Below are positions 6,182-24,078 of a DNA stretch of 63,604 nt, one piece after another (within the stretch, counting starts at the first letter, position 1; each line of letters begins with the position of its first letter). The stretch spans positions 1 through 63,604 of the forward strand of contig JANXMF010000081.1 of the NCBI GenBank assembly GCA_025354795.1, given 5' to 3'. Made by a program: the position numbers and the translations under genes. The notes under the pieces were generated by a model. The model did no database searches. It was not told where the DNA came from and worked only from the letters and a program-made list of their open reading frames with translations. The stretch comes from Pseudobdellovibrionaceae bacterium. Lineage in GTDB: Bacteria > Bdellovibrionota > Bdellovibrionia > Bdellovibrionales > UBA1609.

Positions 6182-6359
6182 GTACAGTCCTGAATTCTTT
6201 ACACATTTTGGCTATTTTGCTGGTTTTGGCGGCACCAAAAGTGTCTGCATTTATACTCTTGACGGCTGTAAAAGACTCGATGCATAACTTGTTCTCGCGG
6301 TGGAGCACTCTCCGTCACGAATGAGTGGAAAACTAAAAATAACTAAAGGATTACTGCAA

Positions 6360-7343: not shown

Positions 7344-7364
7344 ATAAAAGCGTTGTTGAAGTAG

Positions 7365-7396
7365 AAAAAACGGCAGCTAAACGCTGCCGTTTTTTT
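7365..7396. terminator. Bidirectional intrinsic terminator
   Basis: AAAAAA-CGGCAGC-TAAAC-GCTGCCG-TTTTTTT between convergent genes. Confidence 0.85.
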
Positions 7397-7403
7397 ATGC
7401 CTT

Positions 7404-8213
7404 TTAGCCGGCCTCTTGGAAGCGGCCGTTGAGAATTTTAAAAACAAATTCTGATCCAAGCTGCCGAACGAGCCGCGCTTGCACGGTGCTTTGCAATTCC
7501 TCAAAGCGCAGCTCGCACAGCCATGATTCGAGCCCCGGAGGATAGGTGTTCGAAAGGCTACGCATGAGAATCTCGTCGCCGTTGATTTTGACAATCTTAG
7601 CCCACGGTCCGAGCCCTTGGAAGTTCACCAAGATCGGCAAACGGACGGTCACAAGCACCCCTAAATGGGGGGTTGGCTGGAAATCGGACTCCGCAAGGAC
7701 CTGCGCCGGGGCTGCCGGACGGGGCACCCAATCGGTCACTTTCGGCCATGCGGGTTTTGGTAAAACCCACCCGAACTTTGGCGTTTGCAGAGAAGGCATT
7801 TTGGGGCTCGGCACATAGGCCGTGACCTGTTGATGAAACTCCTGGACGTAGACCAAAATAAATATCGCGACATTGATAATCATGGCGATGACCGCCTGAG
7901 GTAGGGCGGTGCGTGCGTCGGCCGTAAATGAGAATGAGTTATAAATAATAAATAGCCCTAACAGAGCAAGCACCAGCGACCAGCTCGAGCGGCGGCCCTT
8001 CACCATCATGGCTCCAATCACGAGACTGCCTAAATTGAGAAGCCAGTAGCTCAGAGGTAAGTGCGTCGCGACCGCGCTAAGGCCTTTCCAATTCCAGATG
8101 TCCGTGCGTTTTTGCACAGCCGCAATCAACATCAAATTGCAAAATGGAGAAAGTAAGAACAGCACTCCACCGACTTGGATTGTGCGTTCCCGGCGGAGCA
8201 GCTTCGCGGTCAT
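7404..8213 (-). CDS. 4-TM membrane protein with Pro-rich linker and possible degenerate PilZ-like C-terminus
   Basis: Four hydrophobic helices, PSPKMPSLQTP linker, beta-rich tail (VQARLVR...FVFK); ATGA overlap with upstream gene. Confidence 0.55.
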   Translation of the reverse strand: MTAKLLRRERTIQVGGVLFLLSPFCNLMLIAAVQKRTDIWNWKGLSAVATHLPLSYWLLNLGSLVIGAMMVKGRRSSWSLVLALLGLFIIYNSFSFTADARTALPQAVIAMIINVAIFILVYVQEFHQQVTAYVPSPKMPSLQTPKFGWVLPKPAWPKVTDWVPRPAAPAQVLAESDFQPTPHLGVLVTVRLPILVNFQGLGPWAKIVKINGDEILMRSLSNTYPPGLESWLCELRFEELQSTVQARLVRQLGSEFVFKILNGRFQEAG

Positions 8214-9061
8214 GCGACGTCCGCGCCCGGCTTTTTCGAGTCGGGTATGAAGCGCATCTGCGCCACCACCTGGGGTTCGGATTCGTCAACGACCGGCGCT
8301 TGACTCACAACCGGCGCCTGGATCGGATCATGTTGCGGCTCAAACGCCTGCTGTGGATCCTTAGCGCGCATCTTGCGTCGGAACTCCAGGGCCTGGCTGG
8401 AGGCGATCACTAAGCAAATAGCCAGCGGATCAAACACGAAGATCAGAATTAGAATTAAATATTTGACCACTTGATCCACTTCAAGATTAAACGCTCGCGC
8501 AATGTATATGATCGGGCCCACTTTACGTTTGAGATCGACATTTTGCACTTCGGTCTTTGTAGTCGTCGCATTAATTTGTTCGATATTGCGGCTGAGCCGC
8601 GCAAGCTCGGGCTCGGCCTCTTTTCGCGCCGTGAGTTTTCGGGTGATGCGGCTGGCAGGGATTTCTTCAACGGCGCGATTGATGCGCTCGACCTCCGCTT
8701 GCGCCCGGATGAGCTCACCCTTTAACGAGGCGAGCTTAATATTTTCGGTATCGAGCGCGGTAGTGGCGCCTTGATAAGCGTTCGAAAAAAATCCAAAGAT
8801 GCCCATGCTTGTGATTAGACTCAAGATCACCACCGCCAACGAAAGGTAGCTCTTAAAAATCCTGTTCTGCAAACGCCAGGTTTGGTGCAAGTAGGCCGCA
8901 ATGACAAACTTGGCCAATTCGAGCGACGCCATGGCTGCAACAATGGCGGTGGACGCACCAGAAAAAAGCTGGCTTAAGCCGAAGACTGAAAAACTAGCTC
9001 CCAGCGTCGACACTGAAACCGCGGTTAAAATAACGCCAATCACGCACCATAGGGCTACCAT
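8210..9061 (-). CDS. Membrane protein with periplasmic coiled coil (DUF4407-like)
   Basis: 3 TM (LELAKF; SLITSMGIFGFFS), a coiled coil, then TM with IFVFDPLAI; ATG 9061. Confidence 0.65.
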   Translation of the reverse strand: MVALWCVIGVILTAVSVSTLGASFSVFGLSQLFSGASTAIVAAMASLELAKFVIAAYLHQTWRLQNRIFKSYLSLAVVILSLITSMGIFGFFSNAYQGATTALDTENIKLASLKGELIRAQAEVERINRAVEEIPASRITRKLTARKEAEPELARLSRNIEQINATTTKTEVQNVDLKRKVGPIIYIARAFNLEVDQVVKYLILILIFVFDPLAICLVIASSQALEFRRKMRAKDPQQAFEPQHDPIQAPVVSQAPVVDESEPQVVAQMRFIPDSKKPGADVA

Positions 9062-9069
9062 ATGAAGAG

Positions 9070-9096
9070 TTATCGGCAAAAACGAAGGTGAATTCG
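9070..9096 (-). promoter_or_regulatory. sigma28/FliA-like promoter, probably leaderless transcript
   Basis: Minus strand CGAA-N15-GCCGATAA (perfect -10), 8 nt before ATG 9061. Confidence 0.55.
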
Positions 9097-9206
9097 CCGT
9101 CCTTGTGTCCAGAACGGCAGCTCGATTAATGTATAGATTTGCCTCAAAAGAGAACCAGGTAGTACTTAGGTAACTTGTCCTTACCGCGACTGGTCGACCC
9201 CCGGGC

Positions 9207-9236
9207 TTGAAGGGCCTATCGACTTTAGGCTATTCT
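9207..9236 (+). promoter_or_regulatory. sigma70-like promoter of yceI
   Basis: TTGAAG-N18-TATTCT. Confidence 0.35.
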
Positions 9237-9277
9237 TTTTGTCCGAATCAAAACGCAAACGCAAAAGGGGAAGTCAT

Positions 9278-9886
9278 ATGAAATTTTTTAATCTGATTCT
9301 ATTGGTAGCTTCGATATCGGCCTGGGGTGATGCCACCTATAAGCCAGGGACCTTTCAAATTGACCCGGCCCATAGCAAAGTGGGTTTTGAAATTCCACAC
9401 TTGGTGATTTCCACAGTAGAAGGGCGTTTCACGGCTTTTGAAGGCAACGTGATCTTAGATCCCAAGTTTGAGAAATCATCGGTGAAGGCCACGGTTGAAA
9501 TCAGTTCCATCGACACCGGCGACCCCAAACGTGATGAGCACTTAAAAAGTCCGGACTTTTTTGATGTCGGTAAATTTAAGACAATGGCTTTCGTGAGTAA
9601 GTCGATCACAGGGACACCTGAGTCGTTTAAGCTCAACGGTTCGCTCACTATTAAGGGTAAAACCAATGCAGTGACCTTTGATGGTAAGTATTTGGGCATT
9701 GTGAATGACGGCAATGGTAAGGAAAAGGCAGTTTTTACCGCTACTGCTAAGATCAAGCGCGCTGAGTATGGATTAACTTGGAATAAGCTGGTCGAAGCCG
9801 GACCAGCCGTTGGCGATGAATTGACGATTCAGCTCAAGATCCAAGCGGGCCGCCCCGCGGCCGCCAAAGCACCGGCTAAAAAGTAG
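9278..9886 (+). CDS. yceI: YceI family lipid/polyisoprenoid-binding protein
   Basis: IDPAHSKVGF, SIDTGDPKRDEHLKSPDFFDV, GSLTIKG, YGLTWN motifs; signal peptide. Confidence 0.9.
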   Translation: MKFFNLILLVASISAWGDATYKPGTFQIDPAHSKVGFEIPHLVISTVEGRFTAFEGNVILDPKFEKSSVKATVEISSIDTGDPKRDEHLKSPDFFDVGKFKTMAFVSKSITGTPESFKLNGSLTIKGKTNAVTFDGKYLGIVNDGNGKEKAVFTATAKIKRAEYGLTWNKLVEAGPAVGDELTIQLKIQAGRPAAAKAPAKK

Positions 9887-9898
9887 CCGGTCCGCGCC

Positions 9899-10969
9899 CT
9901 ACCAGCTGCGCATGTAACCAATCTTTGCGCCAAGGAGTGAGGACTTAGTGTCCCACTTGTCGGTGATGTTACCGACCTGGCCGCTGATCTGAGCCGTGCG
10001 TAGGCGGTATTCCGCAAAAACCTGGATAATATTATGTTCGGTGACACTCCACTCGGCGCCGGCATCGCCATAATAACTGTAGTTGGATTTTGAAGTGAGG
10101 TAGCCGGAGTTGCCAAGGCCCGTTCCATAGTTGAAGCCGATGATGGCTTTGAATAAGAACTTGTCGGCAAAAGGTTCTTGGTAGTCGGCATTCACTCCAA
10201 TTATGATGTCTTGAACTTTGCTGAGATTCAAATTGGTGCTAGTGCCCTGCACGAAGTTGAGAATCGGGTAGCCCTCATTGCCGATCTGAAAACCAGGGCA
10301 GATTTTGCGGTAGTACGAAGTCTTGCCTATGTAACAATAATTTCCTTTCACCGAGTAGTCATCAAAGCTTGTAGTGGAGGCCAAAAACCTAAAAGGTAGC
10401 ACGACGCCGGCTTCCAGATTCATTGAGTAGTGCATGTAATCGAGTTCCATAGACCACAGCGGGTTGATTTGAATCCGGTAGCCCGTCCCTAGAGCCAGAG
10501 TGGGACTGCGGAAATTGTAAGTAGAGCCGCCGTAAGACCAACTTGAGGACAGGGTACTTGGCTTAACATAAAGCCCGGCTTGGTGTTTTGGATAGCCAGG
10601 GTAAGTCTTAAAAGCAACAGCGTCGGGGGTCGTCTCGGTATACTCGGGGCGGGGCGTGCCGGGGGCGGATTCGCCGGGGTCACTGAACTGCATCGCTGGG
10701 CGCGGGTCTGTCGGTGCAGGGGCAGAGTCAACGTTGAATTTCAAATATTCTGAGCTCGAGTTACTTTCCGGCGGCGTGCTGGTGGCTTTTTCCAGCGGCA
10801 TAGAGTCAGGAGCTTCGATCACTACAGGTGCGGGGGCCGCGGCTTTTTTCTTCTTCGCGGCTTTGGTTTTTTTCACCGGCGATGGTGCAGTAGGCGTCTG
10901 GCCCAATGCGAGCGGTGAAACCAAGAGTAGGCTGAACAGCAGCGCGAAGATGGATTTGCTTTGCAACAT
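9899..10969 (-). CDS. Outer-membrane beta-barrel protein with Lys/Pro-rich N-terminal linker
   Basis: Signal peptide, PVKKTKAAKKKKAAAPAP linker, Tyr/Gly-rich amphipathic strands ending GAKIGYMRSW. Confidence 0.6.
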   Translation of the reverse strand: MLQSKSIFALLFSLLLVSPLALGQTPTAPSPVKKTKAAKKKKAAAPAPVVIEAPDSMPLEKATSTPPESNSSSEYLKFNVDSAPAPTDPRPAMQFSDPGESAPGTPRPEYTETTPDAVAFKTYPGYPKHQAGLYVKPSTLSSSWSYGGSTYNFRSPTLALGTGYRIQINPLWSMELDYMHYSMNLEAGVVLPFRFLASTTSFDDYSVKGNYCYIGKTSYYRKICPGFQIGNEGYPILNFVQGTSTNLNLSKVQDIIIGVNADYQEPFADKFLFKAIIGFNYGTGLGNSGYLTSKSNYSYYGDAGAEWSVTEHNIIQVFAEYRLRTAQISGQVGNITDKWDTKSSLLGAKIGYMRSW

Positions 10970-11168
10970 TATGATTATGCCCCCGTGGATATTTGATAAA
11001 AGCGTAGCATCGGGGATCCATTCTTTCCAGCCTATACCACTGGTTGAACGGCCGGGCGAAAAATCTAGACCATTGTTTGAGTACGACAATTGCTCTTTGC
11101 AGATCCCCTTGTCTTTGTTACGATAAATGCAAAGTTCACCACTTGAACGGCGCCGGGAGGCTTCAACT

Positions 11169-11879
11169 ATGTTTATGCGACTTAGAATTCCACTGCTGCT
11201 AATACTGTCCGCACTGGCCGGCCCACTTGCGCAGGCCGAGCCGATGGAAATCTACTGCACCATTCGCAGCAGCGGCGCCAATCTCAATTGCCAGGTGACG
11301 GGCAAAGAGCGAAAAGTTATGAACGTCGAGCAAATCGGAAATTTCATTGATGCCGCCGAGGTCGCGTCCTACATCACCCTTAAGAGTCGCAAGGGAATGG
11401 AGCGCACTTACATGATCGACGCCCGCTCGCCGCAGTTTAAGCGCTTCAACGACGTGAAAAAATCGGCTTCGATCTCAGAAATTTCCAAGGCCAAGTCGGA
11501 TCTGTTCAATGAGATCGAAAGAAAAGTCATTAAAGTTTCTGACGACCTGGACGGGCAAGCCGGTGCGGCCGAGCTGATCCTGTACGATTCGTCCTTCACC
11601 TATGATAAGTTACGGCGTGAAAACCGCACCATGACGGCGGAGCTCGAAGGCTATCGCAACAACAAAGATAAAGTGTGCACCAACACTCCGGCGTTTGAAC
11701 AAATGTCTAAAGTGAAGTCGCATTTGCAACAGACGTTGTCTAATATTATATATGCTTTCCAAACGCCCGATACCTGCATGGCCGATTACAAGGTATTTAA
11801 GGATCGCGATGGTTCAGTGGATCTTCGCCAATTGGACACGATTACCGATCACTTTAAATCGAGCTGCAAAAAGCACTAA
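11169..11879 (+). CDS. Secreted hypothetical protein (helical, Cys-containing)
   Basis: Signal peptide ending AQA; GGGAGG RBS; 3 nt before the DUF2723 gene. Confidence 0.7.
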   Translation: MFMRLRIPLLLILSALAGPLAQAEPMEIYCTIRSSGANLNCQVTGKERKVMNVEQIGNFIDAAEVASYITLKSRKGMERTYMIDARSPQFKRFNDVKKSASISEISKAKSDLFNEIERKVIKVSDDLDGQAGAAELILYDSSFTYDKLRRENRTMTAELEGYRNNKDKVCTNTPAFEQMSKVKSHLQQTLSNIIYAFQTPDTCMADYKVFKDRDGSVDLRQLDTITDHFKSSCKKH

Positions 11880-11882
11880 AGT

Positions 11883-13856
11883 GTGCTGACGAAGAGACTT
11901 TCACCGCGGGCCCGCACGTGGCTCGCGTTACTAGCCACACTCACTCCCATTTTCATTGTTTATTTGGCGACCATATCCACCTTTGTGGGGGGGGGTGACA
12001 GCGGCGAATTGATCGTCGATGCCTTGCATCTGGCAGCACCCCATCCCCCCGGATATCCGACCTACACCTTTTTTGCGCATTGGTTTACGTATTTGCCAAT
12101 TTCCACCATGGCTTGGCGAGTGGGCTTTTTCTCGTTATGCGCTCAGATTCTCTGCGGTGCCGGTTTGTTTTTTCTGGGCAAATCTTGGCTAAAGAAAACT
12201 TGGCTGGCGGCGGCGGTCACTTTACTCTTTTGTCTTGCGCCTTTGACTTGGTATTTCGCGGTCGAGGCCGAAGTGTTCGCACTCAACAACCTATTTGCGG
12301 TGCTTCTGCTGTGCGCGTTTTACAAATACCACCTTGAGCGTACGCCCAAATGGGCCTACGTCACCTGTGGCGTGCTTGGGTTGGCCTGTACCCATCACCT
12401 CACCATCATTTTCTTTGCGGCTCCGTTTGTAGCGGTATTTTTTTGGCAGGATCGCAAAACCTTGCTGCGGCCGGGGGTTTTTCTAATTGGCGTTTTGTTT
12501 TTCGCGCTGGCTCTGACTCCTTATCTCTTTATGTTTTACCTGGGAAGACAGCGTTTATTGATCGCCTGGGGCGACTTGTCAAACTTCGAGGGCTTCTTAA
12601 CCCACGTGCTCCGGCGCGAATACGGCACCTTTCAGCTGGCCACCGGGGACAAGGAAAATTCGACTTTTCTACCCAAGCTTTATTATTTTGGCCGCGAAAT
12701 GCTGATTCAAACATTTTTTATCGGCAGCGTGCTTTGGGCGTGGGGCGTACTTTGCCTACGTAAGCGGGGAGAGCAAGCTGAGTTTGCGAGGCTGGTGGCC
12801 TTTGCTCTCGCATTTTATGTTTTGTTGTTTCAGTACCTGAGCAATTTAGACTTGAGTTTTTTATTGTTCTACCATGCCCAATCCCGCATGTGGATGTTGC
12901 CTTTGCTGTTGATCGTGCTCTTAATGGGCTGGGGACTGAGCAACCTCGAACAGCAGTGGCAGCACCTCACGCCGATGTTGGCCGCGGCCGTCGCTGTGGT
13001 TATTGCTACAAGTGTGGCCTGGAACTGGCGTCAACAGGACCGATCCGAGCGCGACTTTTTTTCGCGCCTTGGTCACGCGATGATCGACAACGTGGACCCC
13101 AACGCCGTCATCCTGATGCGTGAAGATGTTTACGTCAATACCCTCCGCTACCTCCAGTTCGCCGAGAACGTGCGGCCCGATGTCCACGTCATTCCGCTCG
13201 ATGCCATGTGGTGGCCCTGGATGAAGGAACTGGTGGAGGGGAACGTGCCAGGGTTCAAAGTGCCGGGTTTGGTTTTCCGACAGCGGGCCGATGGTCCCGG
13301 GCAGTATATTTTGAAGGATCTGTTGATGGCCAATATCGATCGATTTCCCCTTTACGTCGCTAAAGTTTATCCCTATGAAGAGCAACAGCTTCATGACGAG
13401 GTGAATGGTTTTTCTTTCGGTTTTCACTCACGGGTGAAGCGCTTTGGCCAGGATTTTTCATTGGAGGAGGTGAAGCGTGAGACTGAGGGGTTTTTGCAGC
13501 TCAAAATTCCAAGCCTCGCGGAACATCGTTTCGAGTCGTGGGAATCTTATGTTGAACTTAATTACTATGATACCAAGTTCCCGCTGGGAATACTGCTGAC
13601 GAGCCGCTCGAAGAACCGTGTGGACTGGCTGCTGCTGGCCGCCGAAGTCTTTGACGAGGTTGCCGAGAACAACGCGACCTACAGGTTGCAGTCGCTTAAT
13701 AATTTGGGCGCCATCTATGCATCGCTGATCCCCGTACTGCCGGCCTATAAAGCCCTGGCTGTGACGGCTTGGCAAAAATACTTGGCGTTGACTCCGCCCG
13801 GGAGCGAGGAAAACAAGACTGCAAGAGTGGCACTCGAACAGCTGGGGGCGAAATAA
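11883..13856 (+). CDS. DUF2723 / TMEM260-like GT-C membrane glycosyltransferase (putative protein O-mannosyltransferase)
   Basis: GGDSGEL...HPPGYPTY, AEVFALN, THHLT, LRREYGTFQL motifs; many TMs; TPR-like C-terminus (SLNNLGAIY). Confidence 0.85.
   Translation: MLTKRLSPRARTWLALLATLTPIFIVYLATISTFVGGGDSGELIVDALHLAAPHPPGYPTYTFFAHWFTYLPISTMAWRVGFFSLCAQILCGAGLFFLGKSWLKKTWLAAAVTLLFCLAPLTWYFAVEAEVFALNNLFAVLLLCAFYKYHLERTPKWAYVTCGVLGLACTHHLTIIFFAAPFVAVFFWQDRKTLLRPGVFLIGVLFFALALTPYLFMFYLGRQRLLIAWGDLSNFEGFLTHVLRREYGTFQLATGDKENSTFLPKLYYFGREMLIQTFFIGSVLWAWGVLCLRKRGEQAEFARLVAFALAFYVLLFQYLSNLDLSFLLFYHAQSRMWMLPLLLIVLLMGWGLSNLEQQWQHLTPMLAAAVAVVIATSVAWNWRQQDRSERDFFSRLGHAMIDNVDPNAVILMREDVYVNTLRYLQFAENVRPDVHVIPLDAMWWPWMKELVEGNVPGFKVPGLVFRQRADGPGQYILKDLLMANIDRFPLYVAKVYPYEEQQLHDEVNGFSFGFHSRVKRFGQDFSLEEVKRETEGFLQLKIPSLAEHRFESWESYVELNYYDTKFPLGILLTSRSKNRVDWLLLAAEVFDEVAENNATYRLQSLNNLGAIYASLIPVLPAYKALAVTAWQKYLALTPPGSEENKTARVALEQLGAK
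11987..11995 (+). repeat. G9 homopolymer in the DUF2723 gene
   Basis: GT-GGGGGGGGG-TGAC encoding V-G-G-G-D. Confidence 0.9.
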
Positions 13857-13883
13857 AAAACCCGGTTGGGACCGGGTTTTTTT
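13855..13883. terminator. Bidirectional intrinsic terminator shared by the DUF2723 and fibre genes
   Basis: AAAAAA-CCCGGT-TGGG-ACCGGG-TTTTTTT. Confidence 0.85.
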
Positions 13884-13909
13884 GAGCAACGATTTGACGC
13901 CGTGGCAGA

Positions 13910-16900
13910 TCAATCCGTATTCAAGCCGCGACTGACTTCGACCCAACCCAAAAATCCGTTAAGTGTGGTGCACATCAAGGTGAGTGTTGCCGGTTTTCCT
14001 AATGTAGTGACATAGTTGGTTGCCGTACCATTTAACAAGATTTTATCAGCGCCCATCCCTGCGGTAGTGGTGTCCACGAATGTAATCGTGAATGCTGCAG
14101 CGGCCGAGTTGAGTAGGAACGTGACGATTTGCCCCGGCTTGACCACGCCAGTGCTGCAACCTGTGATAGTCGCAATCGCGCCGGAGTTGGACCCGACGGA
14201 AAGTGACTGAACGTTTTGGCCAGTGGCTGCAAACGTTATGGCTGCTCCAACCGCAGTCGCGGCCGGAGTCGTGGTGTAGTAACCACCATTGGTGTTCACG
14301 CCGCTAAGTACGATGGCGCCACTGCTTTGAAATTGGATCAAGTCCGGGCTTGTCGCGCTCGAGGCGATACCGGCTTGCGAGAGGATATTGATGGAAGTGT
14401 TACCTGCACCGGACGAGCCAACGAATGTGGCTGTTGGTACCGTCGCAACCCCAGAACTTCCGGTCACCATAAACGTTTTGCCCGTTGTCTGGGTTGCTCC
14501 GCCGGATACACTTAATCCACCACCAGTTGTGATCGCACCGGCGCGAACCGCCAGAGCCATACCTGTGGTTGCCGCACTTGAGCCGACAATGGTCGCGGTG
14601 TTTGCGGTAGTTGCGGTACCACCACCAGAGACACTCATTGCGCCGGCAGTCGCCAGCGCGCCACCCGTAACGGCAAGAGCCACCCCGGAAGTTTGACCTG
14701 AGCCGCCGATAATATTCACGGTGTTGCCCGTAGTCTGCGAGGCGCTACTGGTGAAGCGTGCGACGTCGACGGTCGTATTGCTGCCACCGACGACACTCAA
14801 AGCGCCCGATGAAGCTCCTGCTCCGCCAGTGATGGCAAGAGCGACACCCGTTGTTTGAGCCGAACCACCGATAATGTTTACTGTGTTACCGGTGGTTTGC
14901 GCTGTTCCGGACCTAAACGATGCGGTGTCGACGGTGGTCTCCGAGTTTCCACCCATGACACTAAGGGCGCCAGCGGTTGTACCTGCACCGCCGGTCACTG
15001 CCAGCGCGACACCAGTGGTCTGAGCCGAGCCGCCGATAATGTTTATGGTGTTACCAGTGGTTTGCGCAGTCCCGGACCTAAACGACGCGGTGTCGACGGT
15101 GGTCTCCGAGTTTCCGCCCATGACACTAAGAGCACCGGCGGTTGTACCCGCACCAGCGGTGACCGCGAGTGCGACACCAGTGGTCTGAGCCGAGCCGCCG
15201 ATGATGTTCACGATGTTACCCGTAGTTTGTGACGCGCTTCCTGTAAAACGTGCGACGTCGACGGTCGTATTGCTACCACCGACAACGCTTAAGGCGCCTG
15301 ACGTGGCCCCTGCGCCGGCGGTGACCGCGAGTGCGACGCCAGTTGTTTGAGCTGAGCCGCCTATAATTCTAACTGTGTTACCGGTAGTTTGCGCAGTCCC
15401 GGACCTAAACGATGCGGTGTCGACGGTGGTCTCCGAGTTTCCGCCCATGACACTAAGAGCACCGGCGGTTGTACCAGCGCCCGCGGTCACTGCCAGAGCT
15501 ACACCAGTGGTCTGTGCGGCGCCGCCGAAGACGTTCAGAGTATTACCTGTAGTTTGCGCCGATCCCGACATAATTCTTGCGACATCCACGGTCGTTGCAC
15601 TGCTACCACCCATGATGCTCAAGGCACCAGCTGTGGTTCCTGCGCCGCCAGTAACAGCCAGAGCCACACCCGACGTGTGCGCCGAAGAACCTGTGATAGA
15701 GGCCGTGTTTCCGGTCGTAGCCGTGGTGCCACCCGAAACTAGAAGTCCAACCGCTGCGACATCAGTTCCTGGCGTGATCGATACGGCCGTGGCACTTGCG
15801 CCGTTACCGCCCAACACTTTGAGAGCATTGCCAGTTTGCGCCGCTCCACCGATTATGTTTACGGTATTTCCAGACGTCTGTGAAGCTCCAGAAACAAACT
15901 TGGCCACATCCGCCGTGGTTGCGGTACCGCCGCCGTTGACACTAAGAGCTCCGGCATTAGCTGCACCCGCCGCGACCGCAAGAGCCACTCCGGTTGTAGC
16001 AGCGCTTGAGCCAGTGATTCCGACTGTATTTCCGGTCGTTGCCGCCGTGCCACCGCCAATACTTAAAACACTGGTTGTCGTGCCGGTGCCTGCGTTGAGG
16101 TCAGCGGAGTCGTTGGCGCCCCCGGGAGTGATTGTCAAAGGAACTCCAGTTGCGCTTGTCATTGCGACGTTACTGGTGATTGAGGTCACGGCGGTGAGTG
16201 AAGTGATGTCTCCATTCGCGCCCGAGGTAGCGGCAGCCGTCCAGCTCAAAGTGCCGGAACCGTTGTTCTTTAAGAAGCCAGTGCCTTGGGCGGACGGAAA
16301 GGTGATCCCGTAAGTCGTAATAGCCGAACCACCGCTGATCGTCAGCGCGCCACTCGTACTTCCGTTCAATATGAGAGGATTGTTAAAAGCAGTGGAGGCG
16401 CCAGCAAGAGTCAGCGCGCCCGAGGGGTTTAGTGTCAGCGTTCCGGTTGGGTTAATTACCGCGGAGGCGCCCGTAATAGTCAGAGCGCCTGTGGGATTCA
16501 GAGTCAAAGAGCCAGTTGGAGTAACAGACATATTGCCCGGAAAACCCAAACTACTGATATCCGTGTTCGAGCCTTTAGCAGCGGCACCCAGAGCACCCAG
16601 AGAGGGTGTGCCCCAAGTCGGAGCGCCGCCGGCACCGGAGGTCAACAACTGGCCCGCAGTTCCCGCGCCAGAATTGCGCAACATGGTTCCATCTGAGTAG
16701 ACAATTCCACCCGCAGCTGCGGAAGCTAGAGTCAAGCTTCCGGTACCACCCTGATTGGCGGCAAGAGCCGTAGTGAGTCCAGTGATGACTAAGATGTCGG
16801 TGTTAGTGCCACGACCGGCGCCACCAAGAGCGGCGAGAGCGGCAGGGGCTGCGATTTGGCCGGTACCACCTTGAGCGATTGAAAGTGCAGTGGTCAAGCC

Positions 16901-19333
16901 AGAGAGTGAAGTGATATCGGTATTCGCACCGCGAGCGGCGGATCCAAGGGCTTGCAAACTGGGTTGTCCCCAAACCGGAGTGCCTGCACCAGCGGAGACT
17001 AGAACCTGCCCTGATGTCCCGACGCCGACATTTACCAATTTAGTACCATCGCTTGATACCATACCACCTGCCGTCACGGCGAGGGCGTTGTTGTTCGTAC
17101 CGCCTTCAGAAATCGGCAGTGCGGTGGTTAAACCTGTGAGCGACAATATGTCGGTGTTGGTTCCACGACCGGCGCCACCAAGAGCGGCGAGAGCGGCAGG
17201 GGCCGCGATTTGACCGGTACCACCTTGAGCAATGGAAAGTGCAGTCGTCAAGCCCGCAAGTGAAGTGATATCGGTATTCGCACCGCGAGCCGCGGATCCA
17301 AGAGCTTGCAAAGTAGGTTGCCCCCAGACCGGAGTCCCAGCACCAGCGGAGAGTAGAACCTGTCCTGACGTCCCGACGCCGACATTTACTAATTTAGTAC
17401 CATCGGTTGAGACTACTCCGCCTGCCGTGACGGCGAGTGCGTTGTTGTTCGTACCACCATTGGCGATGGGCAAGGTGCCGCTGACAGAGGAGGATAACGA
17501 AGCCGTAGTCCAAGATGTCACGCCGAAACCATTCGTCATTAAGATTTGGTTGGCCGAACCCGCACTCGAGGGAAGTTGCATGGTCCAAGACGTCGGATTG
17601 TTCGGCGACGTGATCGCCACATTGCCCGAGCCGTTGACTAGACTTAAACCGTTAGCATTTGTGAGTTGCACGAAGCCAGCACCGGTCGGTGCAAGGATTA
17701 CGTTTCCGGTACCGGATTGAATTGTGGTCGAGGACGCGCCACCGGTGTTACCAAATATCGATGCACCCGTGCCTGTGCCTCCCATAGTCATTAGACCCGA
17801 ACCAGTGGTGAGAACTGAGACCGCGCCATTAGCGCCCGTAGGATTAATATTCACTGTGGTTGTAGCTGCGCCACCGACAGAGAGAGTGCCGGTTGGATTT
17901 AAGCCGGTAATATCAGAGTTCGCGCCGCTGGCCGCAAGACCGGCACCAGACAAGGAAACCCAGGTCGGGGCACCTGCGCCGTTAGCTTGCAGAACGCGTC
18001 CGGCGAGGCCGGCACCGGTATTTTGAAGGCTGGTGCCATCGGTCCAAATGACTCCGCCGTTGGTAACGGGGAGTGCGGCGTTGTTGGTACCACCATGAGC
18101 GATTCCGAGAGTACTGGTAATGTTAGTGGGGTCTGATAAATCCACCAACTGCCAAGTGGTAGTTCCACTGCCGTTAGTTTGCATGAATTTTCCGGCTGTG
18201 CCGCCATTGGGAGGCAAAAGGAAATTGTAGGGGGCGGGGCCTGAGGGCGCATTCAGCGTGATGCTCGATCCACCATTGATTAAATTCAGACCGTTGGACA
18301 TAATCCGCACGAGGCCGACTCCGGCGGGAGATAGCAAAATGCCTCCGGTGCCGGACTGAATAGTATTCGAGCTCGCACCTCCGGCGTTACCAAAAAGGGT
18401 GTTTCCGCTCGAGCTCATGCTGCCGATGGAAACCACGCCGGTGCCGGTGCCTGGGGTCATTACGACGCCGCCGCTCGTGGTGCCAGCAGTAAAAGTCACA
18501 TCGCCACTTGCACCGGTAACGGTGCCAGTGATTCCCCCAGTTCCAGAGCGCAAGATGGCGCTAGCCGCACCGGAGTTATCACCGATCGTGGTCGAGTTTC
18601 CAGCTGAAGATTGATAAATTATAGACGTTGAGCCGGTGATCGAGCCAGTGGCTGAACCTGTACCACCATTGCCAACGCCGACTTGACCCGACAAGGAGGT
18701 GCTAGCAGGAAGCGGTGGAATCATGTTGAGCGCCACCAAACCACCCGCATCGGCCTGAACCAATTTGTTGGCGGCGCTGGCTTGAGTGTTGGCGTAAACA
18801 GTAGTTGCGTCGAGACCAGTGAAAGTTACGGAGCCGGCCTTAACACCTTTTGCGATCTCCGCGATCATAGCCGTGGGAACTGCGCCAATGACGATATCGT
18901 AACTGGGATTTGACCCATCAATGGCATCGCGAGCCACCACACGAACCATGATTTCGCCATTTCCACCGGCTAACAAAAGTGCCGCCCCGAGAGTAAAGCT
19001 TCCCGCGTTGGTATAGTTGCTGGCAAAGCCCGTACAGGCTCCGCAAGCTGTTAGATTCGCGCCCGCGCCGCTAAGGGCGGTGCTAAACACACCTAGTTTA
19101 ACGGGGGTGGCGACTTGAGTTCCCCACACCGCCACGTTGTTGACAAACACCCCATAAGCCATGTTGTAGCCAGAGGGGAATCCCGCCGCCGCACTATCCG
19201 TGACCGGCGTGTTATTGGCTTTGCGCAACAAACCCTGCACATTGAGTGTGTCTATCACCGGCGTGGCGTGTGCTATCCCACACAGACCCGAGAGGATCAC
19301 TGAAATGATGGTTAGGTGGTTGAGTGTTTTCAT
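13910..19333 (-). CDS. Large secreted beta-repeat fibre/adhesin (MAT-like, phage tail-fibre-type repeats)
   Basis: Signal peptide; N-domain LNVQGLLR...GVFSTALSG...AVPTAMIA; LPIANGGT, GANTDITSLxGLTTALSIAQGGTG and GQVLxSxGxGxPxW repeats; C-terminal tip GQIVTF...TLTL...WVEVSR. Confidence 0.75.
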   Translation of the reverse strand: MKTLNHLTIISVILSGLCGIAHATPVIDTLNVQGLLRKANNTPVTDSAAAGFPSGYNMAYGVFVNNVAVWGTQVATPVKLGVFSTALSGAGANLTACGACTGFASNYTNAGSFTLGAALLLAGGNGEIMVRVVARDAIDGSNPSYDIVIGAVPTAMIAEIAKGVKAGSVTFTGLDATTVYANTQASAANKLVQADAGGLVALNMIPPLPASTSLSGQVGVGNGGTGSATGSITGSTSIIYQSSAGNSTTIGDNSGAASAILRSGTGGITGTVTGASGDVTFTAGTTSGGVVMTPGTGTGVVSIGSMSSSGNTLFGNAGGASSNTIQSGTGGILLSPAGVGLVRIMSNGLNLINGGSSITLNAPSGPAPYNFLLPPNGGTAGKFMQTNGSGTTTWQLVDLSDPTNITSTLGIAHGGTNNAALPVTNGGVIWTDGTSLQNTGAGLAGRVLQANGAGAPTWVSLSGAGLAASGANSDITGLNPTGTLSVGGAATTTVNINPTGANGAVSVLTTGSGLMTMGGTGTGASIFGNTGGASSTTIQSGTGNVILAPTGAGFVQLTNANGLSLVNGSGNVAITSPNNPTSWTMQLPSSAGSANQILMTNGFGVTSWTTASLSSSVSGTLPIANGGTNNNALAVTAGGVVSTDGTKLVNVGVGTSGQVLLSAGAGTPVWGQPTLQALGSAARGANTDITSLAGLTTALSIAQGGTGQIAAPAALAALGGAGRGTNTDILSLTGLTTALPISEGGTNNNALAVTAGGMVSSDGTKLVNVGVGTSGQVLVSAGAGTPVWGQPSLQALGSAARGANTDITSLSGLTTALSIAQGGTGQIAAPAALAALGGAGRGTNTDILVITGLTTALAANQGGTGSLTLASAAAGGIVYSDGTMLRNSGAGTAGQLLTSGAGGAPTWGTPSLGALGAAAKGSNTDISSLGFPGNMSVTPTGSLTLNPTGALTITGASAVINPTGTLTLNPSGALTLAGASTAFNNPLILNGSTSGALTISGGSAITTYGITFPSAQGTGFLKNNGSGTLSWTAAATSGANGDITSLTAVTSITSNVAMTSATGVPLTITPGGANDSADLNAGTGTTTSVLSIGGGTAATTGNTVGITGSSAATTGVALAVAAGAANAGALSVNGGGTATTADVAKFVSGASQTSGNTVNIIGGAAQTGNALKVLGGNGASATAVSITPGTDVAAVGLLVSGGTTATTGNTASITGSSAHTSGVALAVTGGAGTTAGALSIMGGSSATTVDVARIMSGSAQTTGNTLNVFGGAAQTTGVALAVTAGAGTTAGALSVMGGNSETTVDTASFRSGTAQTTGNTVRIIGGSAQTTGVALAVTAGAGATSGALSVVGGSNTTVDVARFTGSASQTTGNIVNIIGGSAQTTGVALAVTAGAGTTAGALSVMGGNSETTVDTASFRSGTAQTTGNTINIIGGSAQTTGVALAVTGGAGTTAGALSVMGGNSETTVDTASFRSGTAQTTGNTVNIIGGSAQTTGVALAITGGAGASSGALSVVGGSNTTVDVARFTSSASQTTGNTVNIIGGSGQTSGVALAVTGGALATAGAMSVSGGGTATTANTATIVGSSAATTGMALAVRAGAITTGGGLSVSGGATQTTGKTFMVTGSSGVATVPTATFVGSSGAGNTSINILSQAGIASSATSPDLIQFQSSGAIVLSGVNTNGGYYTTTPAATAVGAAITFAATGQNVQSLSVGSNSGAIATITGCSTGVVKPGQIVTFLLNSAAAAFTITFVDTTTAGMGADKILLNGTATNYVTTLGKPATLTLMCTTLNGFLGWVEVSRGLNTD
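14540..16080 (-). repeat. Tandem 162/165-bp (54/55-aa) coding repeats, about 9-10 units, each of four ~14-aa sub-repeats
   Basis: acctaaacga recurs at 14911, 15076 and 15403 (spacings 165 and 327); protein unit TTGVALAVTAGAGTTAGALSVMGGNSETTVDTASFRSGTAQTTGNTVNIIGGSAQ; boundaries approximate. Confidence 0.85.
16747..17454 (-). repeat. 354-bp (118-aa) tandem duplication within the fibre gene
   Basis: gtgatatcggtattcgcaccgcgagc at 16911 and 17265; gttgttgttcgtac ends at 17100 and 17454. Confidence 0.85.
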
Positions 19334-20281
19334 CTAGTGAGACCTCACTTCATTCGTTATGGAATTAAATCCGGTCAATAGGTCAAAGCTGGGGTTTGGT
19401 GACGTAGCCGTATTGCTGATGGTGGCCGCTGGATAGATATCCACCGCCGACTCTAGGGTTAGAGGACTCCCGCCACCGCTAGAGTCTGTAAAGTGTCCGC
19501 CCGAAATAACACCCGGGCCGATGAGATCCATAGCAGGAGTAAACTGAATAATTTTAGTGATGCCAGAGGAGATGTTGCCGGCCAAATCCACCGCGCGGAA
19601 AGTGTTGGACACTTGACCGCCTGGAATCAAGGTTACAGTGTAAGTCCAGGCGCCAGCCGAGCAGGCAATGGGCACGAGGGCATTGGGTCCATTGATATGG
19701 TCCACGTCAACCGCGCAAGTGCCGGTGATATCCAGGGTCGCATTCGAACCGGTGTAGGTATAGGTCGCTGCGCCCGCCGACGGCGTCGAAATCACCGGAG
19801 TCAGAGGGGCCACGTTGTCAATGTGCACGTTGAAAGTCTTGTCTGAGCCGGTGATGATCGCGCCGGTCACATCGTAAGCGGTGGCGGTCAAAGTTTTGTC
19901 GGCATCTAAAGGGCCGGTGAAAGATTTACTCCAAGTGAAGTTGCCGTCCTCGGGGCAAGTCGCAATCTCGGCAAAGAGTGTACCGCCTTCACTGAATTGA
20001 ACGGTGTCCACGCCGCGGGTGCAGACACCTGAGACTGTGACGTCGAGACCTAAAATATAGGTACGGTTGCTTGCGATAATAGGGGTCCAGCTGGGGCCAG
20101 CCGCGGTGGGATAGACTAAACTAATCGTTACGGTTCCGCCCGCAACGCTGGTACCGCCGCCGGCCGAAATTCCACCGCCGCCAGTACAAGACAAAGTCAC
20201 AAGACTCGCAAATAGCGACATCAGTGTGGCTCGCACCTGGTGATTCCGCACAAAAGTTTTATAGCCTTTCAATCTCATCAT
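19334..20281 (-). CDS. Lipoprotein with two bacterial Ig-like domains
   Basis: Lipobox TLSC-TGGGG; ATAYDVTG, IDNVAPLTPVISTP and FRAVDLAGNIS Big-domain motifs; its TAG abuts the fibre ATG. Confidence 0.7.
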   Translation of the reverse strand: MMRLKGYKTFVRNHQVRATLMSLFASLVTLSCTGGGGISAGGGTSVAGGTVTISLVYPTAAGPSWTPIIASNRTYILGLDVTVSGVCTRGVDTVQFSEGGTLFAEIATCPEDGNFTWSKSFTGPLDADKTLTATAYDVTGAIITGSDKTFNVHIDNVAPLTPVISTPSAGAATYTYTGSNATLDITGTCAVDVDHINGPNALVPIACSAGAWTYTVTLIPGGQVSNTFRAVDLAGNISSGITKIIQFTPAMDLIGPGVISGGHFTDSSGGGSPLTLESAVDIYPAATISNTATSPNPSFDLLTGFNSITNEVRSH

Positions 20282-20291
20282 ATTTTCCTAA

Positions 20292-21602
20292 TCAATCGCC
20301 GTAGTGGCCGCAGTCGCGTTTAATGAAAACTGAGGAGCCAGTGCCATTTAAAACTTCGACCCAACGACTACCGTGGTCTTTGGCCAAAAGCCGTTTGCCA
20401 GAGCCAAAAAAGCCCGCGGCTTCTTTCGCACCGGGTTTGCCAAAAGCATTGCAATTTTTGTCGGTGATCCAAATACGTCCGCCGTCCACCAAATGCGATG
20501 CTTCTTCGGCAGCCGCGAGACCGCGCGCTTGATGGCGCACTTTTTCAGCCCTAAACGATTTTTGGTCGGAGCCCTCGACCGTGCTGGTGAGAGCGCTGCG
20601 TGCGGTCTCCAGTGCCAACGAAGACTTCAACACCAGTCCGTCGGTATTGGTGCTTTGTTCGATGCTTTGATCGCGGCTTTCTTTTAAGCGCGAAGCATAG
20701 TCTTTAATTTTCAAGACTTCCGATTCGAGACGGATATTTTCAGCCTCATTGCCGATGCGTTTTTTATTGGCGGCCAAAATATCGGATTCATAACGGGCAA
20801 CGTCACCTTGTACTTTGCGGCTGGTGTCGTTGCGGCCTTGCTCGGCTTTGGCTAGATCCTGTTTCGATTGCGTCAGTTCCTTTTGCGCTTGCTCAAAACG
20901 TTTCTTGGTTTCCGCGAGTTGCGCCAAGGCATCGTCACGTTGGCGCATGTGCTCGGCCGCGGCCATTTTGGTTTGCACCCACTCGGCGCGCACCTTCATT
21001 TCATCCGCGTCAAGAGCCGCGCGTTTGGCTTCGGCTTCTTGCACCCGCGTTTCACCGCGGGCAATTTCGTTGCGGAAGCGCTCGATGTCCATGGCCATGG
21101 TGTAAACTTCTCGCTCGGCCTTTTGGCGAGTGGCCGCTAGGGCGGCGAGTTCTTCGGTCAATGCTTTTTGTTTAGCCGCGAGTTCGGTGCGTTGGGTCTC
21201 CAAATAATAAAGAGTGGCTTTGCTGGATTCCTGGAGCTGTTGATGTTCGGCCTGATACGAGGAAAGGTCGCCATTGACATGTTGTAAGTCCACAGCCAAG
21301 AGATCGAGTTCGCTTTGCGCTTTCTCCTGGCGCATTTTCAAGCCTTCGATTTGAAAACGGTGATTGGCCACTTGGGTTTCGACATCGCGGCGTTGTTTTT
21401 CGTAGAGATCGCGATCTTGAACCGCCTTTTGCTCCATGTCTTCGGCTTTCTTCTGCTCAATTTGCTGCTGATTGTAGATTTGGACCAATGAAGCTTCAGG
21501 GTAGTATTTGGCTTTGATGGCGTCGTTCTGAGCAAACGCTGCTGAGCCACTGCCCAACACCATTGCGCCAATCAAGGCTTTCAGATTTCGCAGGTGGTTC
21601 AT
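20292..21602 (-). CDS. Secreted long coiled-coil protein with SH3b-like C-terminal domain
   Basis: Signal peptide ending AFA; about 340 aa E/K/Q/A/R-rich heptads; C-terminus NCNAFGKPG...SRWVEV...VFIKRDC. Confidence 0.65.
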   Translation of the reverse strand: MNHLRNLKALIGAMVLGSGSAAFAQNDAIKAKYYPEASLVQIYNQQQIEQKKAEDMEQKAVQDRDLYEKQRRDVETQVANHRFQIEGLKMRQEKAQSELDLLAVDLQHVNGDLSSYQAEHQQLQESSKATLYYLETQRTELAAKQKALTEELAALAATRQKAEREVYTMAMDIERFRNEIARGETRVQEAEAKRAALDADEMKVRAEWVQTKMAAAEHMRQRDDALAQLAETKKRFEQAQKELTQSKQDLAKAEQGRNDTSRKVQGDVARYESDILAANKKRIGNEAENIRLESEVLKIKDYASRLKESRDQSIEQSTNTDGLVLKSSLALETARSALTSTVEGSDQKSFRAEKVRHQARGLAAAEEASHLVDGGRIWITDKNCNAFGKPGAKEAAGFFGSGKRLLAKDHGSRWVEVLNGTGSSVFIKRDCGHYGD

Positions 21603-21641
21603 GTCTTGTTTCCCTTTCGCCCACAGAGTTCTCATGTCTCC

Positions 21642-21669
21642 CTTTCGGCCATACATATTGGCGGCTTGA
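21642..21669 (-). promoter_or_regulatory. sigma28/FliA-like promoter of the fibre operon
   Basis: Minus strand TCAAG-N15-GCCGAAAG upstream of ATG 21602. Confidence 0.45.
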
Positions 21670-21868
21670 GTCTAGGGTGTAGGAATGAGTCAAGGTTTCG
21701 AACAGTTGACGCTGGTCGTGTAAAACTGGAGCGTGCGGCGAACGCATTTATTTGAACTGACGACTGGCGACCGCCTAATTCACCGATACATATTAAGAAC
21801 TCTTAATTGAATGGATTCCGGGATAGAGCTATGGTCTACCACTAGGACTTTCGCCGTGGAGACCACTT

Positions 21869-22834
21869 ATGAAACATAATGCTTTATCCAAGCCTCTGGT
21901 ATTTTTGCCGAATCTCATTTTGATCATGGGTCTCGGCGCGTGTCGTTCGAATCCAAATAAAGCCGAAGCGATACAGACCCAACTCGACCAACCGGCAGCA
22001 GTGAGTAGCGGTCAAAATGTTGGTTTGAAATCCGGCGAAATGGTGGTCCTGAGCAAAGTGCAAATTTCCGAGCGCTTGCGCGATCTGCAGAATGCGGTTT
22101 ATTCGCTCGAAGATCGCGTTTATGGCACGCGCAAACTCGGGAGCCTGGGTTTGTACGGTGATCTTAAAAGTTGCATGCGGCGCAATGCCTCCCATCAATA
22201 CGGTGGGAGCGGAACTTTGGTTTGGACCGAACCGCTCGACCGGGTCACTGATAAGGAAGACGATCTGAAATTGGGTCTCGACGAGAAAAAGGACCTGGTC
22301 GGGGTTTCTGAAGAGTACCTAAAGGATCGGCTACAGCGTTTTCAGGGCTACAAAATGATATTGCAAAAGCGCAGCGATGAGTTTGAGGAAAAGATCGAGC
22401 AATGCAAAGCGGACCTCGCAACCAAGACCCAGGATACCTCGCAGTCCAGTAAAGTGATGGTCAGTGAGGCACCCAAGGTTACCCAAGACAAAGCCGCCAT
22501 TAATACTTATATGTGTAGCTACGTGCGGCCCGGGGCGAGTCTGAGGACACTGATGATGAACGCCTTCGCTCACGGTTGGCTGTCGCTCTCCGATTTTAGT
22601 TTAGATCAGAATCTTTTGGGCGGCTCGGCTAAAGATGTGAAAGGCGAAACCAAAACTAATGCATTTTTATTTAGTGGTTGGAAATTGGCCTTCGATTCCG
22701 CGCCGATCACCGTGGGCCAGCTACTCGACGAAGGCAAGGATGCAAAATTGGTCGCCTGGGTTTATGATCACAAGGCCGAGGTGTCTCGGGCCGCAGCGTG
22801 CCTGCCTCAGCCCGAAGGCGTTTGGAATCATTGA
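21869..22834 (+). CDS. Hypothetical lipoprotein
   Basis: Lipobox LGAC; helical N-terminal half; GGAG RBS. Confidence 0.7.
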   Translation: MKHNALSKPLVFLPNLILIMGLGACRSNPNKAEAIQTQLDQPAAVSSGQNVGLKSGEMVVLSKVQISERLRDLQNAVYSLEDRVYGTRKLGSLGLYGDLKSCMRRNASHQYGGSGTLVWTEPLDRVTDKEDDLKLGLDEKKDLVGVSEEYLKDRLQRFQGYKMILQKRSDEFEEKIEQCKADLATKTQDTSQSSKVMVSEAPKVTQDKAAINTYMCSYVRPGASLRTLMMNAFAHGWLSLSDFSLDQNLLGGSAKDVKGETKTNAFLFSGWKLAFDSAPITVGQLLDEGKDAKLVAWVYDHKAEVSRAAACLPQPEGVWNH

Positions 22835-24078
22835 GGCGGGTCGGACCGCAAATCCGTTAGCGTTTTCTCCAGACCTTCCACTCGCAATATTTTTGCCTCG
22901 CCGGAATCCAGGAGCTTGCATTGGACCTCGCCCCGCGCCCATTCATCGGGTCCTACCACCACTGCCGCCCAACTGTTTTGCCCGGCCGCGCGTTTCATAC
23001 GTTTCGACAGATTGCCAGAAAACCCAATTTCACAGGTTAAACCCGCGGCCCGCAAACGATAACAGAGTGCAAACGCTTCGGCTTCCATTGAACCATGCAC
23101 GGGAATGACTGCCACCGGCCTGGTTTTCACCCCCTCCAACGGCGAAAGTAGAGCCAGGCGTTCCACTCCCGCTGCCCACCCAATGCCTGGAGTCGCAGGT
23201 CCACCCATGGTCTCGATCAACTGGTCGTAGCGCCCGCCCGAAAGCAAAGCATCTTGCGCGCCCAGAGCGCTCGATTTGAATTCAAACACGCAGTGCGTGT
23301 AATAATCGAGGCCGCGCACCAAAAATGGATTGAGATGAAATTTCAAACCCAGTGCTTGCAAAGAATTGGTCACGGTCGATAAGAATTCGCGACTGGTGTC
23401 GTTGTAATAGTCGGAAATTAGCGGCGCATTTTTAAGCAGCGCGCGATCGCCCTCGTCCTTGCTATCGAGAATACGCAGCGGGTTCAGGCCGAGGCGCCTT
23501 TGACTGTCGGCAGAGAGCTGAGTGTGGTGCCGGGTCAGATACTTGACCAGACTTTCGCAGTAGCGCGCGCGACTCTCAGGATCGCCAATGGAATTGATTT
23601 CCAGTTGTGCTTCAATTTTCAAGCCGCGCAAAATTTCAAACGCGAGAGTCAGGCACTCGACGTCGGCATAGGGCGACGCTACGCCAATGAGTTCCGCGCC
23701 AAGCTGATGAAACTGCCGCTGACGGCCCTTCTGTGGTCGCTCGTAGCGAAACATCGGGCCCGCGTAATAAAGTTTCAGTGGAGTTTTCTGGCTTAAACCC
23801 TCGGAAATAAACGCGCGCGCGATGCCTGCGGTGCCTTCGGGACGCAAGGTCAGCTCTTCACCATTGCGGTCTTTGAAGGTGTACATTTCCTTGTTGACGA
23901 TGTCGGAGGCTTCGCCCAGCGTACGCTTGAACACTTCGGAAAATTCGAATATGGGTGTCGACATTTCATGAAAGCCGAAGCGTGCAGAAATCGATCTCGC
24001 GCACTCGACGATCATGTTATGCTTGGCTTGGGCTTCGGGCAAAAGGTCTTGGGTGCCTCGGACACTTTGTAATGACAT
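22828..24078 (-). CDS. hisS: Histidine--tRNA ligase
   Basis: RGTQD, KEMYTF, LRPEGTA, FRYERPQKGRQRQFHQ, LVRGLDYY, GGRYD. Confidence 0.98.
   Translation of the reverse strand: MSLQSVRGTQDLLPEAQAKHNMIVECARSISARFGFHEMSTPIFEFSEVFKRTLGEASDIVNKEMYTFKDRNGEELTLRPEGTAGIARAFISEGLSQKTPLKLYYAGPMFRYERPQKGRQRQFHQLGAELIGVASPYADVECLTLAFEILRGLKIEAQLEINSIGDPESRARYCESLVKYLTRHHTQLSADSQRRLGLNPLRILDSKDEGDRALLKNAPLISDYYNDTSREFLSTVTNSLQALGLKFHLNPFLVRGLDYYTHCVFEFKSSALGAQDALLSGGRYDQLIETMGGPATPGIGWAAGVERLALLSPLEGVKTRPVAVIPVHGSMEAEAFALCYRLRAAGLTCEIGFSGNLSKRMKRAAGQNSWAAVVVGPDEWARGEVQCKLLDSGEAKILRVEGLEKTLTDLRSDPPQ

Follow-up and report, generated by a model that had tools for sequence, protein, structure and literature searches.

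A proposed envelope-anchored mount for a variable MAT-type fibre in an accessory island of a Pseudobdellovibrionaceae bacterium

Overview

We propose that a gene block within a 63,604-nucleotide (nt) stretch of DNA from a Pseudobdellovibrionaceae bacterium (contig JANXMF010000081.1 of assembly GCA_025354795.1; the whole analysed stretch is called the window) is an accessory island whose five-gene core would build an envelope-anchored mount for one variable adhesive fibre of the mosaic adhesive trimer (MAT) type without an S74 domain, and in which a glycosyltransferase is optional. We put the probability of this reading at about 0.5. The core consists of a fibre of 1807 amino acids (aa) (FIB; 13910..19333, minus strand), an Ig-like lipoprotein (IG; 19334..20281, minus strand), a secreted long coiled coil with an SH3b-like end (CC; 20292..21656, minus strand), an outer-membrane beta-barrel of about 356 aa (OMB; 9899..10969, minus strand) and a 236-aa secreted protein (SEC; 11169..11879, plus strand). 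The proposal is built on gene linkage, homology of the fibre N-terminal domain, variable fibre bodies and tips, fusions of SEC to the barrel and patchy presence with empty sites, to which folding adds a predicted ten-stranded barrel; each binding step in it is read from linkage, fusion or domain type.

Linkage and distribution of the core genes

An earlier description of the locus, made from the sequence alone (the original prediction), named seven open reading frames, all of which are present at their given positions, and treated them as one dedicated system. Five of the seven hold together in relatives, where 15 loci have all of them on a single contig and at least four gene orders occur; these loci come from a metagenome and from three families (f1, f10 and f12). 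The other two do not belong with them, a DUF2723 glycosyltransferase (GT) being optional and a 321-aa lipoprotein (LP321) a resident of the site. The 15 loci comprise 13 from profile mapping together with G506 and G572, the same genome under several identifiers being counted once; the mapping is partly circular, several profiles having been built from these loci, and BLAST with the window proteins gave most of the same assignments. The core falls into two sub-modules, IG-FIB and the envelope triad CC-OMB-SEC, and the orientation between them varies among loci. In genus g58 the five genes form one same-strand run, CC-IG-FIB-OMB-SEC.

SEC, the best-conserved marker of the block, was found in 7/401 genomes of the phylum and 27/384 of the order (Bdellovibrionales), and within g58 in 4 of 44 genomes and in none of the 22 single-contig ones. 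CC and SEC match the identical 6 of 81 relatives. Ten genomes carry the triad without an adjacent fibre, and six of these have the fibre subfamily elsewhere; the search for IG in five triad genomes was insensitive, matching only G507 and missing an IG seen later in G506. A literature search, with most subscription papers outside reach and without the supplements of PMC10769870 (on MATs of other strains), returned no description of this gene set, and the five-gene set is apparently undescribed as a module.

The minus-strand operon in the window is spaced as originally described, with 10 nt between the CC stop and the IG start and the IG TAG abutting the fibre ATG. Likely starts lie downstream of the longest-frame starts for OMB (10969, giving 356 aa and agreeing with the database call), for SEC (11169, 236 aa) and for CC (probably 21602, judged by eye); signal peptides and lipoboxes were assigned from hydropathy and by visual inspection. 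Positions 7000-23500 are covered in 30/30 bins, with zero listed indels, by contigs of four runs from one study of rock and sediment metagenomes; the runs may include the source sample, so that this coverage is not independent of the source, and the whole block lies in no single covering piece. No RNA dataset stood among the listed holders of the block. Related loci are titled Pseudobdellovibrionaceae, Bdellovibrio sp. or Bdellovibrionales metagenome-assembled genomes, and from this kinship we assume that the source organism is predatory.

The fibre

FIB contains 17.6% Gly, 15.8% Thr, 14.7% Ala and 10.3% Ser over its 1807 residues, with Lys, Arg, Asp and Glu together at 4.4%. It has no Pfam match and carries internal repeats of about 55 and of 118 aa; a similarity to phage tail fibres in one of the repeats (phrog_11393, E 1e-11; PDB 7z47, E 8e-4) speaks indirectly for a trimeric fibre. 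Its kinship is carried by the N-terminal domain (residues 24-168, positions 18830-19264). An alignment of these residues with 13 orthologues, compared with the N-terminal domains of 17 S74-ending fibres from genomes G344 and G364 (genus g58), gave an HHalign probability of 91.7% (E 7.6e-7, 117 columns), and all 30 reversed or shuffled controls stayed below 1%. The suggested relation to MAT fibres is borne out by this homology; a PDB sequence search with the same domain returned no significant match. None of the eight module fibres scanned for S74 (PF13884), namely the window FIB and seven orthologues, gave a match, and FIB is thus placed in the non-S74 subgroup; by its sequence it is a divergent non-S74 MAT relative. 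A capping-loop motif of beta-helix regions, searched with our own variant of the published pattern rather than its exact form, is present in 17/17 S74 fibres and 1/14 module fibres, with no occurrence in the window FIB.

In common with the non-S74 MATs of B. bacteriovorus, FIB begins with a signal peptide, after which come a homologous beta-rich domain (about 130 aa) and a long Gly/Ser/Thr-rich mosaic body with a variable tip and phage-fibre-like repeats. The 14 orthologous fibres range from 334 to 1807 aa, share mainly residues 1-210 and differ in their bodies and tips. Unlike these MATs, FIB has an N-terminal domain from a divergent subfamily, which gives a single strong match in each of most of the genomes searched, and is accompanied by a dedicated upstream lipoprotein and usually by the three-gene triad. 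The word 'operon' is absent from the main text of the paper on MATs (Caulton et al. 2024, PMC10769870), where the MAT N-terminal domain is said presumably to bind an as yet unidentified surface element. By analogy, and from MAT kinship only, FIB may recognise prey.

The fibre N-terminal domain family appears to reach clusters without a Pfam family in Myxococcota, Bacteroidota and Verrucomicrobiota (scores 0.90), which we give as a lead only. Elsewhere in the genome (G000) are two canonical MAT-type genes (C88:10718-13894 and C212:3-2636) and, next to GT2 genes, a tandem trio of S74-domain genes, each of about 500 aa (C180:14975-18180). The genome also encodes other long Gly/Thr/Ser/Ala-rich secreted proteins, some with repeat-rich ends, that are possible surface adhesins (C43:1-8757, C60, C63, C92, C100, C173 and C236).

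The Ig-like lipoprotein

IG combines a conserved lipobox Cys, a Gly/Ser linker, two Ig-like domains (weak match to Big_13, E 0.008) and a separate C-terminal segment of about 65 aa. In 21 of the 22 readable loci it is the gene immediately before the fibre, G508 being the exception; the count excludes G003, L050, L062 and G336 (contig ends), G009 (ambiguous frames) and G512 (unexamined). The two genes are -1 to 19 nt apart in the 18 loci where this was measured, the last sense codon being the reference point. We regard IG as a candidate anchor or chaperone of the fibre. A PDB sequence search with IG gave no significant match.

A suspected resemblance between the C-terminal segment and a small motif that accompanies fibre genes in other phyla was not confirmed. 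A search of the Atlas yielded no usable match. Searching 301 genomes with the segment gave two true matches and six weak ones, and the three that were followed are methionyl-tRNA formyltransferase-like by sequence and context. One representative-library match, P0154, which carries immunoglobulin C1-set repeats, was judged false and dropped.

The envelope triad

The fold model of OMB has ten long strands (pLDDT 83.8), and its best fold matches are OpcA (Z 20.4, root-mean-square deviation 3.0, 208 aligned) and an OmpT-like barrel (Z 18.7); the match to PF13505 is below the cut-off. Identity to the OpcA/omptin barrels is 8-13%, and OMB differs from them in a conserved Cys pair and in an N-terminal extension or fused SEC domain. 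No sign of protease function was seen. Omptin proteases use catalytic Asp-Asp and Asp-His pairs, and the 18 OMB orthologues have no invariant His, their columns having been compared without mapping onto OmpT. The invariant Cys pair sits in a loop that is presumably periplasmic, and the long strands of the model could project outward. Ten-stranded barrels of the OpcA/omptin type are not known to act as protein-export pores, and pores of the autotransporter or TpsB type have at least 12 strands, of which the OMB model, considered as a single copy, falls short. OMB as modelled is likely too narrow to export the fibre, and export by the system itself, as had been predicted, finds no support.

SEC has four invariant Cys, a small alpha/beta head and long helices (model pLDDT 86.8). 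It has no family match, and Foldseek returned no match at E <= 0.001, the best other fold comparison reaching Z 4.4, which amounts to no known fold match and is not proof of a new fold. Among its 118 relatives the named ones are all labelled hypothetical. A profile search of 1.84 billion representatives gave 39 matches, eight of which join SEC(1-165) to a barrel-like tail; against the barrel profile two of these tails match strongly (E 8e-19 and 5e-17, library scale), three faintly and three below the reporting score. SEC adjoins the barrel in 25 loci and is fused to it in two genomes (27 loci together), one extra copy, in G017, has no barrel beside it, and four loci are cut off too soon to judge; both fused genes located in genomes adjoin CC. 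Since SEC is fused N-terminal to the barrel, and the N-termini of outer-membrane barrels face the periplasm, SEC is likely a periplasmic partner of OMB. A single-sequence scan of genome contigs with SEC matched nothing, and an alignment-based scan recovered the loci. Some SEC relatives carry a Cys-rich C-terminal extension of about 120 aa (L075:9537-10679 in G336; P0136, P0137, P0140, P0144 and P0146); in G336, from another order of the phylum, the SEC relative adjoins a barrel and a fibre fragment.

CC is a secreted long coiled coil of 240-520 aa among orthologues, with a Cys-paired SH3b-like C-terminal domain. The SH3-like assignment made earlier for the window copy holds among the orthologues, 5/16 of which match SH3_3 at a permissive threshold (best E 4.7e-6), and not in the window copy itself, which has no match. 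CC resembles EnvC/PcsB-type coiled-coil envelope proteins and SH3b cell-wall-binding proteins in being a secreted long coiled coil with a C-terminal SH3b-like domain, and differs in that no M23, CHAP or NlpC/P60 catalytic domain was detected. We regard CC as a candidate peptidoglycan tether.

The glycosyltransferase

GT (11883..13856, plus strand) follows SEC and was correctly called a DUF2723 enzyme. It matches PF11028 at E 5e-18 (66 bits against a cut-off of 24.2) and PMT_2 weakly, has ten hydrophobic segments, and aligns through residues 18-463 with human TMEM260 (PDB 9rql; E 6.5e-47), of which it is a true homologue. TMEM260 (GT117) is described in PMC10214176 as a protein O-mannosyltransferase, which transfers mannose from a lipid-phosphate donor to Ser/Thr of IPT domains and has an essential, catalytic Asp52 in its first luminal loop; Asp39 of GT aligns with this residue, and the Asp is kept in G003, G008 and G017 as well. 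The two enzymes thus share the PF11028 domain, the Asp52 equivalent and a multi-pass membrane topology. They differ in that GT is bacterial, that the neighbouring Ig domains match Big_13 weakly and not IPT/TIG, and that PF11028 is widespread without the module (59/401 genomes). The alignment stops at residue 463, the C-terminal module of TMEM260 being TPR, for which GT has no Pfam match. Between the converging stops of GT and the fibre lies a hairpin flanked by A and T runs (13855..13883, no strand assigned), whose folding (-15.9 kcal/mol, z -3.4, 0/200 shuffles equally good) supports the shared terminator suggested earlier; it is likely a bidirectional intrinsic terminator common to both genes, and it was missing from the output of a simple terminator scan.

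GT is an optional passenger and not, as first thought, a dedicated part of the core. It is present in 2/15 single-contig loci and lies next to SEC in the fragmented G003 and G017, which makes four genomes, all of genus g1; it is missing from G016 (99% complete) and from L062. Among the seven SEC genomes of the phylum sample four have no PF11028 match and two have PF11028 on other contigs, and four of five further module genomes lack a match. Conversely, 56 of the 59 PF11028 genomes have no SEC, and the surroundings of 26 other PF11028 loci yielded no module gene except for one weak coiled-coil match. Within g1 GT is found only with the module (4/5 carriers, 0/13 non-carriers), an association that could stem from physical linkage alone. 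The SEC tree leaves 9/17 forks open for gain or loss of GT, and a single origin is possible. The alternative that GT simply belongs to the hisS-kynB neighbourhood, where it is found in G047 and G030, was rejected for g1, where nine empty-site regions are without it.

There is modest support from sequence comparison for glycosylation of the fibre or IG by GT, because in g1 the gene occurs only with the module and because other GT-C-like genes fill its slot in two lineages. In L051 a TMTC-like GT-C follows the fibre, and in G506 the interval between fibre and SEC encodes two GT2 proteins, nucleotide-sugar enzymes and a pair of multi-pass proteins that are GT-C-like only in their pattern. A Gly/Thr/Ser/Ala-rich neighbour occurs at 7/26 other PF11028 loci, three of the seven being one orthologous arrangement, against 68/1610 genes (4.2%) in G000. 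The Ser+Thr fraction of the fibre does not differ with GT (0.23-0.26) or without it (0.24-0.31). GT2 and PF01050 genes are present in all five module-bearing g1 genomes, and donor supply does not discriminate, since the GT-less G016 is among them. That GT modifies the fibre or IG has, in our estimate, somewhat less than an even chance, and that it is needed for display is very improbable. A literature search, with most subscription papers beyond reach, found no bacterial DUF2723 substrate described.

Three further arrangements of PF11028 genes were observed. In three genomes a PF11028 glycosyltransferase converges on a lipoprotein and a Gly/Ser-rich secreted protein, a parallel candidate substrate pair (L103:2107-5808, L109:5416-9097 and L037:4525-8214). 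In L107:712-6712 (G317:C297) one is followed directly by a canonical MAT gene and preceded by the gene of a further multi-pass membrane protein. G000 has a second PF11028 gene with a weaker match (C105:11586-12014; L038), which closes an ExbBD-like operon that includes large secreted proteins.

Boundaries and passengers of the island

The block is missing at this site in nine same-genus genomes. In eight of the nine regions the upstream outer-membrane gene (6300-7343 in the window) is followed directly by the 321-aa lipoprotein, and the ninth has another gene between; as the two are adjacent in relatives, 7404-21656 reads as an insert and LP321 (21869..22834, plus strand) as its resident flank. 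LP321 had been counted as a member of the system, a role that is withdrawn here: its family is matched in 61/81 relatives and it borders the empty site. Its N-terminal 190 aa belong to a highly conserved family with about 50% identity across the order and no Pfam match; a second copy lies in G000:C152, and it is a core gene without assigned function. G008 has an empty site here and carries the module and GT at a different site.

The protein of 6300-7343 (plus strand), at the left edge of the insertion site, is of outer-membrane type and occurs in one or two tandem copies in same-genus genomes. It has no Pfam, NCBIfam or PDB sequence match, and it may be related to the Bdellovibrio major OMP/PopA family. 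Further out, a FecR-domain protein with a C-terminal barrel-like region and its 222-aa neighbour (2764-6181) are syntenic across g1. Inside the insert, 7404-9886 encodes two membrane proteins (269 and 289 aa) and a YceI protein, unmatched in other mapped module loci, which we count as further passengers. The gene after the fibre gene in G003, G017 and G376 (L024:503-2395, L030:418-2319 and L073:6739-8655) encodes another optional passenger, about 630 aa long; the G003 and G017 copies match RCC1 repeats and the G376 copy is similar at its ends.

Discussion

We propose a model in which all parts of the module would cross the inner membrane by Sec, the fibre then crossing the outer membrane by a route encoded elsewhere and not through OMB. 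IG would bind the fibre N-terminal domain, probably via its C-terminal segment, and would hold the putative trimer at the outer membrane. OMB, the periplasmic SEC and CC with its SH3b-like end would form a strut from the outer membrane to the peptidoglycan that braces or positions the fibre. Where a GT-C enzyme is present, it may glycosylate Ser/Thr in the fibre or in the Ig domains, acting in the periplasm and taking the sugar from a lipid-linked donor. Finally, the fibre tip would bind prey or other surfaces.

Several observations weigh against this model. The sub-modules can separate: the IG-FIB pair is present without a SEC match in G002, G064 and G073, and the fibre subfamily was not found in four of the ten triad genomes without an adjacent fibre (G520, 93% complete; G575, 81%; G479, 67%; G474, 54%), both fusion carriers included. 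The C-terminal segment of IG is weakly conserved and has no invariant column across 15 members, and IG may face either side of the membrane. Given its scarcity in g58, and its absence there from the single-contig genomes, the module cannot be the general MAT anchor, most MAT-rich genomes being without it. Furthermore, co-location in a mobile island can arise without a common function, and related genomes are not independent.

Much of this would also fit an island that holds two unrelated modules, IG-FIB as a self-contained fibre unit and CC-OMB-SEC as a separate strut from outer membrane to peptidoglycan with another job. Each sub-module is found without the other, their mutual orientation varies, and both genomes with a SEC-barrel fusion have CC and no detected fibre. 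However, 15 loci, spread over three families and different chromosomal sites, have the five genes on one contig, once as an interleaved same-strand run, and three of the four triad-only genomes are less than 82% complete; we consider two unrelated modules unlikely, and the strongest of the alternatives. A different division of labour would make IG a periplasmic folding or export chaperone that replaces the S74 chaperone domain, with the outer loops of OMB holding the fibre. Lipoproteins face the periplasm by default, the fibres scanned have no S74, the IG-FIB spacing is as tight as in a co-translated pair, and the long strands of the modelled barrel may reach outward. Against a chaperone stand the two Ig-like domains after a Gly/Ser linker, which suit a spacer, the three genomes with IG-FIB and no SEC match, and the main-text account of B. 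bacteriovorus non-S74 MATs, whose tips are said to fold independently (PMC10769870), and we judge it distinctly improbable.

The dedicated seven-gene system of the original prediction, which exports, anchors and obligatorily O-glycosylates a prey-recognition fibre, draws on the confinement of GT in g1 to module carriers, at a different site in G008, on the intact catalytic Asp in all four GT genomes, on the enzymes that fill the GT slot in L051 and G506, and on the excess of Gly/Thr/Ser/Ala-rich neighbours at other PF11028 loci, three of the seven being a single arrangement. Yet GT is missing from 13/15 loci and also from L062, a locus with 80% SEC identity and a homologous fibre tip, most PF11028 genomes have no SEC, and the Ser+Thr content of the fibre is the same with or without the enzyme. 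As an obligatory unit it is refuted by the absence of GT from most loci, the resident LP321 and the predicted ten-stranded OMB, and we see very little chance for the seven-gene system as a whole. Returning to the five-gene mount, its boldest form would be a dedicated anchoring apparatus, the first for a MAT-type predator fibre, with a lipoprotein clamp, a barrel-adaptor-coiled-coil strut and interchangeable GT-C enzymes, including a bacterial TMEM260 homologue, glycosylating the fibre or its Ig anchor; this form we advance tentatively and think rather doubtful.

How MAT fibres attach to the predator surface is stated as open in the main text of Caulton et al. 2024 (PMC10769870). The island offers candidates for the surface partner of a MAT, namely the Ig lipoprotein and the barrel together with SEC, its partner of unmatched fold that is either fused to it or encoded separately, within the limit that the module is accessory and was not found in most Bdellovibrio-like genomes searched. 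Its main value lies in these anchor candidates and in the fused barrel partner; glycosylation is secondary. The block also supplies a concrete candidate substrate for a bacterial TMEM260 homologue. Given the apparent spread of the fibre N-terminal domain family, the anchor mechanism could matter beyond predators.

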